From the NCBI RefSeq assembly GCF_057098645.1, contig NZ_CM169472.1: a stretch of DNA of 64,000 nt. One strand, 5' to 3'. The notes under the pieces are model-generated. The model did not search any database. It saw only the letters and a program-made list of their open reading frames with translations, and was not told where the DNA came from. Positions within the stretch are counted from its first letter, which is position 1. Every line of letters starts with the position of its first letter. Of this stretch, positions 48,674 to 52,289 are shown piece by piece. Both the position numbers and the translations under genes were made by a program.

Positions 48674-49273
48674 TTACCGTAAAGCCCACGCCATCATACT
48701 CAACGTAACAAAACTCAGGCACGTTCCCCACTCACTCCACTTCCGTATCTGGCTTCTATTTTTGCTACGCCACTGGCAATAATATCCCAACGCAAAACCA
48801 AGCTGTGCGCTTATTGGACCGACAAAGTCAATCCACGGTTGAGACCAAAATGGCGAAAAATTCAGTGGGAGCCAGACAACGGTCAGAAAGAAACTGCGCA
48901 TATTTTCCAGCAATGCAATTTTCGCTGGCGCGACATAGAAAATGATATTCCACAGGAGCAACCAGAAATAAACTGGTACAAATACCAGCCAATAATGCAG
49001 TTTGCTTTTCAATTCAGATTGAGTTATGCGAGCAAATTGCCAACCAACGCAACATATGGCGCAGAACAAAAGCGTATATTCAGCCAATAACCCAAGTTGT
49101 AATTCAAGAAGGGATATACGCGCACCATAGGGAGATATAGAAAATAGTAATTCCCCCATAAAAGTCAACGTGGATATAAATATAGCTAAAGCAATCACCG
49201 TCGGCCATACCAACAACGGCACAATAACAAAGCCGAGAATTAGCGGAGAAATATAAAGTCTGATTTTATTCAT
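48674..49273 (-). CDS. Hypothetical polytopic inner-membrane protein (gene 4 of accessory operon)
   Basis: ORF 48674..49324; likely start at the Met giving MNKIRLYISPLILGFVIVPLLVWPTVIALAIF... (199 aa), preceded by AGGA and placed 2 nt after the stop of the upstream gene; about 5-6 hydrophobic helices; no family recognised. Confidence 0.6.
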   Translation of the reverse strand: MNKIRLYISPLILGFVIVPLLVWPTVIALAIFISTLTFMGELLFSISPYGARISLLELQLGLLAEYTLLFCAICCVGWQFARITQSELKSKLHYWLVFVPVYFWLLLWNIIFYVAPAKIALLENMRSFFLTVVWLPLNFSPFWSQPWIDFVGPISAQLGFALGYYCQWRSKNRSQIRKWSEWGTCLSFVTLSMMAWALR

Positions 49274-49275
49274 CT

Positions 49276-50043
49276 TTATTGTCCTGGTGATTCGGATGAT
49301 CTGTCGTACATGACACATAAACACTCATCAATCATCCACTTGTCTTCCCAGACCTGATACTGTGTGCCCTGTTCGGACTGCTTAAGCGGGTTCTCAATCG
49401 CCTGCCGCGCGCGTTCTTTCAGGATGGATTGATTGTTGTCAGCCCAGGTATTGATTTGGGCGGTAATGGCATTATCGATATCGTCCTGGTTATCTCTGAT
49501 ATAACCTTCACGATACTGGTTCAATAAACAGGCAAGTGAAGCTGCCGACCAAAAGCCGGGAATTGAATTAACGGCATCAAGCAATGGCGCAAGAGCGATA
49601 TCGGCACGGAAAAACATTTCCAGCATATACTGTAATTCGACAGCTTCATCGCCGGATACCCAATCAGTCATATACTGGCAGGCAAATCGCTGTAAAATTG
49701 CCCGTTCATCCGCACGCCAGTTTTCTTTGTTGGCAAGGTTGATACGGCGCAGAGAAAAAACTACGTGAATATTGTCAAAATGCCCCTGTGCAACAAATTC
49801 CAGTAAACGCGGCAGAAAATAGCGGACCTCATCGCTATTTTGCGGATCAGGCTCTGGGCTACTATTCCAGGCATTGATTAAGGAATACGGGATCGCTCGT
49901 AACGATGTACTCCGTAATGCCTTTTGTTCCTGCTGACTCAGGCAATATTCACAACAAACCACAAATTTCTGCGGCACCGGATAACGACGAAAAATATGAT
50001 AAATCTGCTCAATTAATGCCTGCATGGCGGGGCTGGGTTGCAT
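49276..50043 (-). CDS. Hypothetical soluble protein with Cys motifs (gene 3 of accessory operon)
   Basis: 255 aa ORF MQPSPAMQALIEQIYHIFRRYPVPQKFVVCCEYCLSQQ...; strong GAGGGGG ribosome-binding site inside the upstream gene's 3' end; start 2 nt after the upstream stop; no family recognised. Confidence 0.6.
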   Translation of the reverse strand: MQPSPAMQALIEQIYHIFRRYPVPQKFVVCCEYCLSQQEQKALRSTSLRAIPYSLINAWNSSPEPDPQNSDEVRYFLPRLLEFVAQGHFDNIHVVFSLRRINLANKENWRADERAILQRFACQYMTDWVSGDEAVELQYMLEMFFRADIALAPLLDAVNSIPGFWSAASLACLLNQYREGYIRDNQDDIDNAITAQINTWADNNQSILKERARQAIENPLKQSEQGTQYQVWEDKWMIDECLCVMYDRSSESPGQ

Positions 50044-50045
50044 AA

Positions 50046-50756
50046 TTACCCCCTCGCCAGCTGATCACGTGTAAACGGTTGATAGACAAAACGAGCATTC
50101 GCCGCGTTCAGGCGAATAAGGGCGCTACGCGAAAGGGAAAAGCTGGGGCGAATGCAACTATTGCAGTCTCGACAGCTTTCCTCTGCGCAATTTTCCACTG
50201 AGTAATGACGCGTGTAGAGTTTCAGTTCGGCCTGCTTATCGCGAAATCCGCGTAAACTGTTATTGTTATGAAATTTCCAGGCATCTTTAAAGACCTGAAA
50301 GATATAGACATCCTCAATCCAGGAGTCACATTTTTTAAGCGGGCGCTTTGCTATTATCACCCGCTCATCCGGATTTAGCATCGCCGTAAATTGTACGGTG
50401 ACGTCATTTGTCGTGTTCAGGTCACATTGAACATCTGGTACATCACTGATATAGGGGTCAAATCCAAAATCAGCACCACAGGCACAAAGACGGCTAATGG
50501 TGGCGGTATCGAGGGAAAATCCCGGCCATACCTTGCTGGACGTTAAGCCAATATTTAATGTGACATCATATCGAAGCAATCCCTCAAGACCGTCAGCACC
50601 GACGAACTTTTCCCCTTCATCCAGGACCTGGTTAATAAGTTGCTGAACAATGCCTTCATCCCAGTATGCCGATTTGCAGTTGGCAATCGTAATATCCACG
50701 CCTGTGAAGGGATCAGTACCGGCAAGGCTTGCAAATAATGTATTAACTAATTCCAT
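50046..50756 (-). CDS. Hypothetical soluble protein with C-terminal Cys cluster (gene 2 of accessory operon)
   Basis: 236 aa ORF MELVNTLFASLAGTDPFTGVDITIANCKSAYW... ending ...CAEESCRDCNSCIRP...; 15 nt after the stop of gene 1; no family recognised. Confidence 0.6.
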   Translation of the reverse strand: MELVNTLFASLAGTDPFTGVDITIANCKSAYWDEGIVQQLINQVLDEGEKFVGADGLEGLLRYDVTLNIGLTSSKVWPGFSLDTATISRLCACGADFGFDPYISDVPDVQCDLNTTNDVTVQFTAMLNPDERVIIAKRPLKKCDSWIEDVYIFQVFKDAWKFHNNNSLRGFRDKQAELKLYTRHYSVENCAEESCRDCNSCIRPSFSLSRSALIRLNAANARFVYQPFTRDQLARG

Positions 50757-50771
50757 TTTTATTATCCAGCT

Positions 50772-52289
50772 TTAAGGTAGCGTCTTATACATCGGGACAT
50801 AACCTACATCTTCCACCAAACTCTGCCCCTGCGGCGTTAAAAACCATTCCACCAATTTTTGTGTCTCTGACGTCGTATTTTCCCTCGTTACCATAAAGGC
50901 ATCGACGATATAGGGATATTTGCCGTTGCGAATATTTTCCGCAGTCGGTGCAATACCGTTAATCGCTAGCAGTTTTATATTTTTATCGGCGTTCATTTGT
51001 GTTGCGTAATAACGGAAGGTGTAACCTATTGCGTTGTTTGTATTACGATATTCGGCAACGACTTTAATCATTCCCTCCATTACGCTTGCCACTTCGGTTT
51101 CCTGCGGCGAGATCATGCGGACATTTTTCATGACCTGTGATTGCATCACTGTCTGGCTGCCAGAGTCTTCCGGGCGCTGCCAGGTCTGGATCTCCTGATC
51201 GTTACCGCCAACAGTACGCCAATTGGTAATTGCACCACTGAAAATGTCACGCACCTGTTGTTCAGTCAGGGAATTAACCGGATTATCCGCATTGACGATG
51301 AAAACGAATGCTTCACGGGCAAAGGGGGTGTACAGCAAAGTGACACCAGATTCCTTTGCACGTTTTTTTTGCCCACCGGAAGGTTGCGCCACGAAAATAA
51401 TATCAGCATCGCCCTTAACGATTTTGTTATATGCTTCTGGCGTACGAGAGTTTTCCAGATAATCCCAAACGTGAAAATCCTCTGGTATTACACTTAATGC
51501 ATAAAATGCAGAAGCATAAATTGGGTACGCAGCCGTGGCGCCATCGATTCGCGGCCAGTTTTGCCTAAACTGAATTTGCGGTTTGCCACGCAGCGGCGTC
51601 AGTCGATTATTGAGTTTATCGGGTTGCCAGGCCCAGATATCAATATTTTCGCGTACACCGACACCAGGATTGAGCTGTTTATATAAATAACCCTGATAAC
51701 CAGCGACAAAACCAAGCATGAGAAGGATAAACAGGAGGGAATTACGGCAACGTAGCCCGGATGTACCGGTTAAAGGATGTCTGGTTGGCCGGCCGTACCC
51801 CAGCGAAAAACTGATATGCGCGCCAACGGGTATAATGACTATCCACCAGTACTCACCTCCGACTACTGAGACTAACAAAACGCCCAGCCAGGGGAGCATA
51901 AGATCAGCCAACCAACCCGATCCCATCTGGTGAAATTGATAATCTGCCAGATGCAGCGCGATTATCCAGCCAACCAGGATTAATAAAGCGGGTACTAAAA
52001 AAAGACATTGTCGCCAGACGGCTATTTCTCTTTTTTCTGGTGCACTATCGCCTGCCCATACTCGCCCCGAGAAAAATAGCATTAATGCGCCCAGCGCCAG
52101 CATAAAAATGTTGAGCAGAAGGTAAATTGTTGGCGTGATAAGGATATTACAAACTTCAATAATACCGGCAAGTCCGACACCCAGCATAGCAACAACCGCC
52201 GCCAAAAATTGCGTCAGTATGGGGATGCCGAAAAAAGTCATTACCAGCGAGGACAAAATCCATTTTCTGTTTTGCATTATTCTTTCCAT
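50772..52289 (-). CDS. Membrane-anchored PstS-like (PBP type 2) substrate-binding domain protein (gene 1 of accessory operon)
   Basis: 505 aa ORF: N-terminal ~240 aa with ~6 hydrophobic helices, C-terminal ~260 aa resembling phosphate-binding-protein folds (AAYPIYASAF..., LTEQQVRDIFSGAITNWRTVGG..., EDSGSQ, AIGYTFRYYA, INGIAPTAENIRNGKYPY...). Start may be the Met at 52277. Confidence 0.7.
   Translation of the reverse strand: MERIMQNRKWILSSLVMTFFGIPILTQFLAAVVAMLGVGLAGIIEVCNILITPTIYLLLNIFMLALGALMLFFSGRVWAGDSAPEKREIAVWRQCLFLVPALLILVGWIIALHLADYQFHQMGSGWLADLMLPWLGVLLVSVVGGEYWWIVIIPVGAHISFSLGYGRPTRHPLTGTSGLRCRNSLLFILLMLGFVAGYQGYLYKQLNPGVGVRENIDIWAWQPDKLNNRLTPLRGKPQIQFRQNWPRIDGATAAYPIYASAFYALSVIPEDFHVWDYLENSRTPEAYNKIVKGDADIIFVAQPSGGQKKRAKESGVTLLYTPFAREAFVFIVNADNPVNSLTEQQVRDIFSGAITNWRTVGGNDQEIQTWQRPEDSGSQTVMQSQVMKNVRMISPQETEVASVMEGMIKVVAEYRNTNNAIGYTFRYYATQMNADKNIKLLAINGIAPTAENIRNGKYPYIVDAFMVTRENTTSETQKLVEWFLTPQGQSLVEDVGYVPMYKTLP

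Follow-up and report, generated by a model that had tools for sequence, protein, structure and literature searches.

Introduction

In Escherichia coli O157:H7, the interval between glpD and glgP carries a version of the locus considered here that the literature knows as O-island 133; the sole phenotype reported for it, a reduction of type III secretion that emerged from a deletion screen, concerns the O157 form, and the O157 homologue is expressed at a very low level. Its counterpart in ExPEC is genomic region GR24 (glpD..glgP) of BEN2908, which carries auf and is also present in CFT073, where its expression has been studied. In K-12, all that the site holds of the locus is the short pseudogene yzgL and a fragment of a second gene.

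The DNA analyzed here is a window of 64,000 nucleotides from E. coli O145:H28 RM12761, in which a four-gene locus lies between glpD and glgP. The locus had initially been annotated by eye as an AT-rich accessory operon, a composition taken to support horizontal acquisition and possible silencing by H-NS. Our results indicate that it is probably the O145:H28 allele of an old, hypervariable and recombining glgP-glpD locus found in Escherichia, Salmonella and related enterics.

Results

Gene organization and putative control elements

All four genes lie on the minus strand, separated by gaps of 15, 2 and 2 bp, and would form a tightly packed operon that works as one unit. The interval 48674-52289 coincides with these open reading frames. 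The features of the region are as follows.

52362..52388, minus strand: hairpin followed by a T7 run, candidate glgP terminator, read from the sequence directly 3' of the glgP stop codon
52307..52312, minus strand: perfect TATAAT hexamer, candidate -10 element, 27 nt upstream of the PGAP start of ORF1
50772..52280, minus strand: ORF1, WP_122993991.1, 502 aa (PGAP start 52280, longest-ORF start 52289)
50046..50756, minus strand: ORF2, WP_000424551.1, 236 aa
49276..50043, minus strand: ORF3, WP_001183143.1, 255 aa
48674..49273, minus strand: ORF4, WP_001033837.1, 199 aa (PGAP start 49273, longest-ORF start 49324)
48545-48587, minus strand: match to Rfam ES036 (CssrF), 39.3 bits against a gathering score of 37.6
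48520..48625, no strand assigned: REP/BIME-type palindromic repeats in the glpD-ORF4 spacer (inverted repeat I3)

The hairpin, which is absent from the list returned by the terminator scan, is likely the glgP terminator and would insulate the operon from glgP transcription, so that the four genes are apparently transcribed from a promoter of their own downstream of it. The candidate promoter looks weak by consensus, as it consists of a -10 element only: no good -35 element was found with the TATAAT hexamer, and the promoter scan picked up just a weaker match that overlaps it, with no more sites in the region than the shuffled expectation. At the other end of the locus, the REP/BIME part of the query has a median of 21 matching places per E. 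coli genome.

Base composition and codon usage

The impression that the operon is richer in AT than the flanking glp and glg genes is borne out by computation, since positions 48674-52289 contain 45.7% G+C, as against 52.7% in the rest of the window (52.3% in the whole of it), 55.2% in glpD and 50.8% in glgP. A sliding-window calculation identifies the locus as the lowest-GC 3.6-kb block in the window: the mean over all 3616-bp windows is 52.3% with an SD of 1.9%, the 15 lowest all overlap the locus, and the locus itself lies about 3.5 SD below the mean, a dip that is therefore not due to chance. The segment 49080-49260, which had been put at around 40% G+C, contains 39.8% and falls within the lowest 2.9% of all 181-bp windows, and the A/T runs that had been noticed are indeed 2.7-fold denser than elsewhere when runs of at least six are counted (19.6/kb versus 7.2/kb). 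Gene by gene, G+C content amounts to 46.5% in ORF1, 46.7% in ORF2, 46.5% in ORF3 and 42.3% in ORF4.

Codon usage likewise sets the locus apart from the other genes. GC3 ranges from 0.44 to 0.48 in its four genes (0.469 in ORF1), compared with a mean of 0.578 (SD 0.055) in the other 48 genes; GC1 is low as well (0.42-0.55 versus about 0.61 elsewhere), and the shift is thus more than an amino-acid effect of membrane proteins. The Karlin B codon-usage distance of the pooled locus, 0.348, makes it the most atypical of the gene blocks in the window, other contiguous blocks of like size having a mean of 0.164, an SD of 0.038 and a maximum of 0.272, reached by the hof operon. CAI values, which were computed with Sharp & Li weights and are approximate, are 0.18-0.28 against a mean of 0.33; they are also low in hofN (0.19) and gntX (0.18), and in this respect the locus is not unique. 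Composition and codon usage hence deviate in the way by which genomic islands are recognized.

The low G+C content is common to every Escherichia allele (44-47% versus 51-55% in the flanks), and the dip is milder in the Salmonella allele (50.9 versus 54%); in the allele of another enteric contig (L026) the figures are 50.7 versus 54.7%. Low G+C and atypical codons are best explained as a stable property of every allele and not as the mark of a recent insertion, and the low G+C is compatible with an ancient foreign origin; as a matter of composition, the finding is ordinary.

Mobile-element signatures and H-NS signals

No tRNA gene was found at the locus, no meaningful direct repeats were found around it, its annotation contains no integrase, transposase or other mobility gene, and viral contigs hold no relatives of its genes. 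Apparent plasmid copies proved to be matches to Mb-sized chromosomes only, and an apparent phage copy was a Salmonella chromosomal contig.

On average, H-NS-bound DNA in enterics contains roughly 46-47% G+C, close to the value of the locus, where AT content is moderately high, at 54.3% compared with 47.3% in the rest of the window. Only three 100-bp windows reach at least 65% AT; they are isolated and none is upstream of ORF1, a region that is not markedly AT-rich. The H-NS high-affinity motif TCGATAAATT, with at most two mismatches allowed, occurs at 0.55/kb in the locus and at 1.24/kb elsewhere. These sequence signals for silencing are weak, and H-NS may or may not bind at the locus.

The same site in other genomes

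The four-gene form, with at least 80% of the query covered, is present in 1715 of the 5426 complete genomes, alongside several other forms and a deletion allele, a sporadic distribution of the kind seen in genomic islands. Where an insertion as the derived state would leave an empty site in sister taxa, we found homologous genes at the same glgP-glpD site in E. whittamii, E. albertii, the cryptic Escherichia clades and Salmonella enterica; the enteric contig L026 carries homologues of ORF1, ORF2, ORF3 and ORF4 with their order kept, its ORF4-like gene encoding 169 aa, together with an extra gene that matches the MkoA/MkoC helicase.

In K-12, the first 221 nt of ORF1, which correspond to yzgL, are fused to the last 60 nt of ORF4, the 3.3 kb from ORF1 nt 222 to ORF4 nt 540 being gone with a 4 bp overlap at the junction. 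This junction is common to 1225 of the 5426 genomes, and the K-12 remnants are 97% identical to the O145 alleles (97.3% for yzgL against the allele in the window). Judging from the junction, the seemingly empty K-12 state is a deletion, not an ancestral empty site. Gene replacement, duplication, insertion and shuffled gene content add to the structural variants at the locus, and some strains keep auf only. Even between O145:H28 and O157:H7, whose glgP genes are 99.4% identical, identity falls to 90.7% in ORF1 and the genes in the middle are not the same.

Divergence of the alleles

Within E. coli, dS amounts to 0.15-0.34 for ORF1 and ORF3, 0.02-0.21 for ORF2 and about 0.8 for ORF4, which has diverged more than any other gene here (77-79% identical in nucleotides, 63-67% in amino acids), against 0.02-0.04 for the flanking glgP and glpG; dN/dS is 0.11-0.38 in the locus versus 0.02-0.03 in the flanks. 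Hitch-hiking would be expected to raise dS in glpD, where it reaches 0.11-0.20. Between E. coli and Salmonella, ORF1 and ORF2 are 49-54% identical at the amino acid level and the flanking proteins 89-93%. Alleles that appear mosaic and far more diverged than their flanks speak in favor of exchange between lineages, even though part of the high dS could come from a mutation rate that is elevated locally, or from relaxed selection on codons, and not from old alleles.

The encoded proteins

By simple hydropathy, the N-terminal ~200 aa of ORF1 contain 6-7 hydrophobic segments, which leaves its topology ambiguous. Residues 247-485 match Pfam PBP_like_2 (6.8e-31), and the protein matches PstS proteins of the PDB at 1e-18; against TIGR02136 it scores 124.1 bits, under the cut-off of 206.6. 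This C-terminal PstS-type solute-binding domain would face the periplasm.

ORF2 has no predicted TM segment. Its residues 1 to about 103 correspond to a domain also found as stand-alone proteins of ~100 aa that end in ...AGASFDFDPYV; a profile search returned 69 relatives, many of them single-domain proteins of ~100 aa, and the family shows weak matches to DUF4279. The AF2 model is confident for residues 1-100 only, and no known family was matched by the C-terminal half (~130 aa). Full-length homologues come only from Escherichia, Shigella, Salmonella and metagenomic sequences. Within ORF2, only the N-terminal domain is homologous to proteins encoded right after toxin domains: its relatives occupy the immunity-gene positions of Rhs loci (L017/L018 and L031), one of them (P0095, E = 2.9e-20 to the ORF2 profile) begins just a few nt beyond a fragment of an Rhs C-terminal toxin, and another (P0126) sits between Rhs genes. 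In the Salmonella locus, the third gene is a true homologue of K-12 YbbD, whose gene comes after the Rhs C-terminal orphan ylbH. Between 44 and 57 kb in the window, toxin genes of the Rhs, CDI or T6SS kind are absent.

ORF3 is an all-alpha helical-repeat protein with no predicted TM segment and with two invariant cysteines, C30 and C34; all its relatives above 34% identity whose context was checked are in the same glgP-glpD locus. ORF4 is, by hydropathy, a small polytopic membrane protein with a marginal similarity to residues 93-162 of ORF1 (BLASTP E = 0.1). None of the four proteins has a match in PADLOC-DB at E <= 0.1.

Discussion

The compositional deviation of the locus would, taken alone, agree with a recent horizontal islet in the O145:H28 backbone that owes its AT-richness to a foreign origin and is silenced by H-NS. 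Such a reading accommodates the low or atypical G+C, GC3 and codon usage, the absence of the locus from K-12-like genomes and its variability among strains, and the enrichment in A/T runs, while the resemblance in G+C to H-NS-bound DNA would suit silencing. However, the site is filled by homologues in Escherichia species, Salmonella and another enteric, K-12 lost the locus through deletion, neither a tRNA, an integrase nor a direct repeat was found, and plasmid, phage and viral copies are lacking; silencing, in turn, sits poorly with an H-NS motif that is not enriched, with only three isolated 100-bp windows at 65% AT and with the composition upstream of ORF1. Because synteny and the K-12 deletion junction contradict recent acquisition, we consider this reading unlikely. 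What stands of the proposed horizontal acquisition is its basis in AT-richness, atypical codons and accessory status; a discrete acquisition event does not agree with the missing mobility signs, the homologues at the same site and the K-12 deletion.

At the opposite extreme, a resident and poorly expressed operon might have drifted toward AT by biased mutation under weak selection, with no foreign input or exchange, which would be in keeping with the long residence of the locus, its relaxed dN/dS, the scant expression of the O157 homologue and a CAI as low as that of the poorly expressed residents hofN and gntX. Yet other low-CAI resident genes keep a GC3 of 0.48-0.61 and a GC1 of ~0.6, above the values of the locus, whose codon distance also exceeds that of the hof block. 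Without recombination, moreover, mosaic alleles are difficult to account for: the K-12 remnants are nearly identical to the O145 alleles when ORF4 of other E. coli is so distant, and the O145 and O157 loci differ despite their closely similar glgP genes. Purely endogenous drift is thus distinctly improbable. That the AT-richness is a by-product of hydrophobic membrane proteins, or mere chance, is scarcely credible: ORF1 and ORF4 are indeed membrane proteins with many Leu, Ile and Phe residues, and G+C is lowest in ORF4, but the genes for the soluble ORF2 and ORF3 are equally low, GC3, a synonymous position, is low in all four, and the membrane-protein genes feoB, gntT, yhgE and yhgN of the same window have a GC3 of 0.56-0.66. 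These GC3 values refute the by-product reading, and chance does not fit the single lowest block in the window.

The absence of mobility signs, the homologues at the same site, the K-12 deletion, the deep allele dS and the shuffled gene content together point to a long-lived, recombining and hypervariable locus. Its basic form would be a four-gene operon for a membrane-anchored PstS-type protein, an Rhs-immunity-like protein, a helical-repeat protein and a small membrane protein, which would persist under purifying but relaxed selection. The alleles are probably far older than the E. coli core genes around them and would be passed from one lineage to another via homologous recombination in the conserved flanks, with repeated remodeling by deletion (yzgL in K-12), by replacement (a second PstS-like gene in O157:H7, auf in ExPEC), by duplication and by insertion.

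The diversity of this locus might be driven by antagonism, that is, by competitor toxins or phage acting at the envelope. Given that no toxin gene is near, that PADLOC gave no match and that ORF3 has no link to Rhs, the antagonism reading draws on two observations, the N-terminal domain of ORF2 and the pattern of diversity, and under it ORF2 and possibly ORF3 would be immunity-like or binding partners. It is quite doubtful, though conceivable, that the four-gene module constitutes an envelope-associated protection system not described so far, directed at competitor toxins or phage and maintained at a fixed Enterobacteriaceae site as a balanced polymorphism of long standing, in which paralogues of ORF2 and ORF3 would serve as interchangeable cassettes for specificity or immunity. 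If true, such a system would account for families restricted to the locus and for tandem paralogues, for deep allele divergence and frequent loss, as well as for the Mokosh-like helicase-nuclease gene inserted in the homologous operon of another enteric.

Comparison with known systems

ORF1 resembles PstS, the phosphate-binding protein of the PstSCAB transporter, in that its C-terminal domain bears the PBP_like_2 fold signature and keeps R-x-x-D-S-G-S, aligned with the anion-binding motif R..DGSGT; unlike PstS, it carries a polytopic membrane anchor in place of a signal peptide, and annotation places no pstC-, pstA- or pstB-type permease or ATPase genes in the locus or nearby. As with the immunity genes of Rhs and polymorphic toxins, the N-terminal family of ORF2 is found directly after Rhs C-terminal toxin domains, and the tandem paralogues and rapid divergence of the locus families recall orphan immunity arrays; unlike Rhs immunity genes, ORF2 continues into a further C-terminal half of ~130 aa, and ORF3 shows no association with Rhs.

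O-island 133 of O157:H7 shares with the locus in the window its glpD-glgP site, orientation and tight spacing, orthologous first and last genes (ORF1, 90.7%, and ORF4, 88% identical in nucleotides) and a low G+C content (47.1%). Its middle is one second PstS-like gene of 330 aa where the window has ORF2 and ORF3, and gene content is therefore not the same as in the EDL933/Sakai island. The auf region of ExPEC uses the same integration site, with homologues of ORF2, ORF3 and ORF4 still adjoining glpD; a chaperone-usher fimbrial operon of ~38.5% G+C stands in place of ORF1, of which 72 nt of the 3' end are left. The yzgL pseudogene of K-12 is a remnant of ORF1, not a functional counterpart.

The O-antigen rfb cluster with gnd is a hypervariable locus with old alleles and hitch-hiking flanks. 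Although the products of the present locus are inner-membrane and cytoplasmic proteins and not surface polysaccharide enzymes, it is like rfb/gnd in its low G+C content, in the large number of deeply diverged alleles that occupy one fixed site, in the exchange through conserved flanks that these suggest and in the raised diversity of an adjoining core gene, which here is glpD.

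Results

Between glpD and glgP lie four closely spaced genes, ORF1-ORF4, which the initial annotation had delimited as 48674-52289, that is, by the longest-ORF limits of the genes annotated by RefSeq. The stretch 48461-52404 is 100% identical to the E. coli O145:H28 RM12761 chromosome (NZ_CP007133.1), and RefSeq gives the following genes.

Genes of the locus and its flanks (RefSeq)
46955-48460, plus strand: glpD
48674-49273, minus strand: ORF4, hypothetical
49276-50043, minus strand: ORF3, hypothetical
50046-50756, minus strand: ORF2, hypothetical
50772-52280, minus strand: ORF1, 'PstS family phosphate ABC transporter substrate-binding protein'
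52405-54852, minus strand: glgP

Since the order of the four genes is kept across genera and only 2-15 bp separate them, gene arrangement suggests that they form one functional unit, with a putative promoter of its own 3' of the glgP terminator; in a promoter scan of the locus region, matches were not above shuffled expectation. The glpD-ORF4 spacer contains REP/BIME palindromes (48520-48625; median 21 matching places per E. coli genome), and an Rfam ES036 (CssrF sRNA) match at 48545-48587 on the minus strand, whose 39.3 bits lie barely above the gathering score of 37.6, may simply be the REP hairpin.

Composition and codon usage

Computation bears out the impression that the operon is AT-richer than its flanks: the locus block has 45.7% G+C against 52.7% in the rest of the window, and among all 3616-bp windows (mean 52.3%, SD 1.9%) the lowest 15 all overlap the locus. 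The values judged by eye were also close, since 49080-49260, put at ~40%, has 39.8% G+C, and the flanks, put at ~50-55%, have 55.2% (glpD) and 50.8% (glgP), compared with 42.3-46.7% for each of ORF1-ORF4; in the sliding profile the dip starts at the glpD stop and stops at the glgP stop. Codon adaptation gave a more divided answer. GC3 is 0.44-0.48 in ORF1-ORF4 as against a mean of 0.578 (SD 0.055) in the 48 other genes of the window, GC1 is also lower, and the codon-usage distance of the pooled locus, a measure independent of any outside reference, is 0.348, compared with an average of 0.164 (SD 0.038) and a maximum of 0.272 for gene blocks of similar size. CAI, an approximate value here, is low in ORF1-ORF4 (0.18-0.28), yet overlaps that of other poorly expressed resident genes. 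The compositional deviation of the locus is far beyond chance, and membrane-protein composition was rejected as the cause of the low G+C, since the shift is just as evident in the two soluble proteins and at synonymous positions. The deficit is found in every allele examined (44-47% G+C in Escherichia, with a milder dip of 3-4 points in Salmonella and another enteric).

Elsewhere in the window, two small accessory inserts (27594-28225 and 39958-40712) are likewise below average in G+C: a toxin-antitoxin pair of MazE/MazF-like type, flanked by rpnA and bioH, has 49-50% G+C, and a TacAT-like DUF1778/GNAT pair, flanked by malT and rtcA, has 46-49% G+C and a GC3 of 0.43-0.50.

Divergence and distribution

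Comparison of E. coli strains gives a dS of 0.15-0.34 in ORF1 and ORF3, 0.02-0.21 in ORF2 and about 0.8 in ORF4, against 0.02-0.04 in the flanking glgP and glpG, a synonymous divergence 5-30 times that of the flanks. With a dN/dS of 0.11-0.38 versus 0.02-0.03 in the flanks, the locus is under purifying but relaxed selection, unlike pseudogene-like decay. The dS of glpD, which abuts the locus, is raised as well (0.11-0.20), in agreement with hitch-hiking with the hypervariable locus next door. Alleles are mosaic: strain OkiPb01713 shares 99.3% identity with the window allele in ORF2 and 76.9% in ORF4, the K-12 remnants match the O145 alleles at 97% identity, and O145:H28 and O157:H7 differ in the locus while their glgP genes are 99.4% identical. 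Between E. coli and Salmonella, protein identity is 49-54% for ORF1 and ORF2 but 89-93% for the flanking proteins.

Some form of the locus is present in about 75% of complete E. coli genomes. Of 5426 such genomes, 1715 contain 80% or more of the region, in most cases at just 88-93% identity. Its content varies widely: in O157:H7, ORF1 and ORF4 enclose a second PstS-like gene (330 aa); some strains lack ORF2; and in ExPEC the auf fimbrial operon either replaces ORF1 while ORF2-4 are kept, or is present alone. In K-12, nucleotides 1-221 of ORF1 (the yzgL pseudogene, on which the literature offered nothing functional) are fused to the final 60 nt of ORF4, the junction showing a 4 bp overlap. As exactly this junction recurs in 1225 of the 5426 genomes, the 'empty' state is a single deletion allele and not the ancestral one. 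Homologues occupy the glgP-glpD site in E. whittamii, E. albertii, the cryptic clades and Salmonella enterica; a scan of genome contigs with ORF1 as sole protein reached Escherichia only, the wider range coming from exact-protein context look-ups. A metagenome contig of another enteric (L026) has homologues of ORF1, ORF2 (two copies), ORF3 and ORF4 in the same order and, between the two ORF2 paralogues (3564-6263), an inserted gene for an SF1 helicase of 899 aa (AAA_11/AAA_12), which also has a nuclease-like DUF2726 domain and matches the Mokosh MkoA/MkoC models at 1e-44.

Two further observations concern other sequences. The 477-bp contig NZ_JAHZMP010000174.1 (0.78x coverage), deposited as Terrisporobacter mayombei and 97-99% identical to E. 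coli glgP/ORF1 DNA, is almost certainly a contaminant in that assembly. O157:H7 Sakai carries a DprA-like gene and a helicase pseudogene (ECs_4280-4281; L028, the Sakai locus, 21638-24964) between yhgN and gntU, a pair missing from the O145:H28 window, in which gntU comes directly after yhgN (63341-63934).

The encoded proteins

ORF1 begins with 200 residues that contain 6-7 hydrophobic segments; behind them lies a PBP_like_2 domain (6.8e-31) with kinship to PstS proteins of solved structure (1e-18). Its score stays below the curated PstS cut-off (124 versus 206.6 bits), and there are no permease or ATPase genes alongside. ORF4 is by hydropathy a small polytopic membrane protein, for which marginal similarity (E = 0.1) hints at a duplicate of the ORF1 membrane domain.

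ORF2 and ORF3 are devoid of hydrophobic segments. Searches of Pfam, NCBIfam, PADLOC and PHROGs returned nothing for ORF3 and ORF4, and for ORF2 nothing beyond a weak partial match to NCBIfam PRK09781 'YbbD'; neither the ORF2 nor the ORF3 profile matched any PDB sequence. A homology between ORF2 and ORF3 was not accepted (E = 0.003 in a single pairwise comparison, 24% identity, many gaps). The distant ORF3 relative P0162 has an unrelated, uninformative context; in one E. coli variant (L023, 651-2254) two tandem ORF3 paralogues are 38% and 60% identical to the ORF3 of the window, so that this family has duplicated and diverged within the locus.

By exhaustive profile search, the N-terminal domain of ORF2 falls into a family of ~100-aa stand-alone proteins that have ...AGASFDFDPYV at their C-terminus and weakly resemble DUF4279. 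The two members with informative contexts are both in Rhs loci: P0095 begins a few nucleotides 3' of an Rhs C-terminal toxin fragment, recognised by its ...DPLGL core end and a tip of ~120 aa, and P0126 is flanked by Rhs genes; the contigs of four further stand-alone relatives are too short for informative context. P0095 and P0126 sit in the classic immunity-gene position. The AF2 model of ORF2 is confident for residues 1-100 only and poor past residue 100; an APOBEC likeness that Foldseek returned for it (E >= 0.03, TM about 0.2) is meaningless.

Annotation also links ORF2 to YbbD, PGAP calling some alleles 'YbbD family protein' while leaving others as 'hypothetical protein' (50046-50756 in the window; 2836-3546 in the related locus L006). 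The name seems to stem from the PRK09781 match, which spans residues 7-49 only and is probably due to fusion proteins of Salmonella (P0111 and P0113 among them), where an ORF2-like N-terminus is joined to a genuine YbbD-like part; the NCBIfam model may itself be chimeric. We therefore reject ORF2 as a YbbD homologue. The genuine homologue at this site occupies third place in the Salmonella allele, and K-12 ybbD is placed after the Rhs orphan ylbH; nothing functional on YbbD was found in the literature.

Discussion

The most fitting description of the locus is that of an old, hypervariable operon at a fixed site, whose alleles are exchanged by recombination and whose content has been repeatedly remodelled. 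The initial annotation had taken its AT-richness to support horizontal acquisition, a view that holds in part: the mosaic, diverged alleles make exchange likely, whereas insertion of a foreign island is disfavoured by same-site homologues across genera, by the deletion in K-12 and by the lack of mobility signs (no tRNA, integrase or flanking repeats at the locus, and no genuine plasmid, phage or viral-contig copy). For an old, recombining, site-fixed operon, horizontal exchange is thus likely to have been allele replacement within a resident locus. Because absence from K-12 is a deletion, being both K-12-absent and AT-rich is no sign of recent gain.

A position conserved across genera, combined with synonymous divergence so far above that of the flanks, makes the locus a candidate for diversifying or frequency-dependent selection. 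As to function, an envelope-associated module with antagonist-driven diversity seems most likely, albeit with low confidence because neither annotation nor PADLOC revealed a toxin gene or known defence model at the locus. The binding domain of ORF1 would face the periplasm, tethered to the inner membrane, with ORF4 as a small membrane partner and ORF2 and ORF3 as two cytoplasmic partners, and competitor toxins or phage would drive the diversity, of which the Rhs-immunity-type domain of ORF2 is the sole direct hint. Were the module a protection system, its presence in some form in most complete E. coli genomes would make it tractable. All four proteins are uncharacterised, and two of the families are essentially restricted to this locus.

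As a compositional observation the dip carries little weight, low-GC variable islets being commonplace in E. coli; it is ordinary for a variable region that is already catalogued, and the gene set is of mild interest for its evolutionary behaviour. In its allele exchange and remodelled content the locus resembles other low-GC polymorphic E. coli loci. Deletion of O-island 133 was reported in a screen to reduce type III secretion. The locus is the O145:H28 counterpart of that island, catalogued in O157:H7 (EDL933), and it corresponds to GR24, the glpD..glgP region of ExPEC that carries auf.
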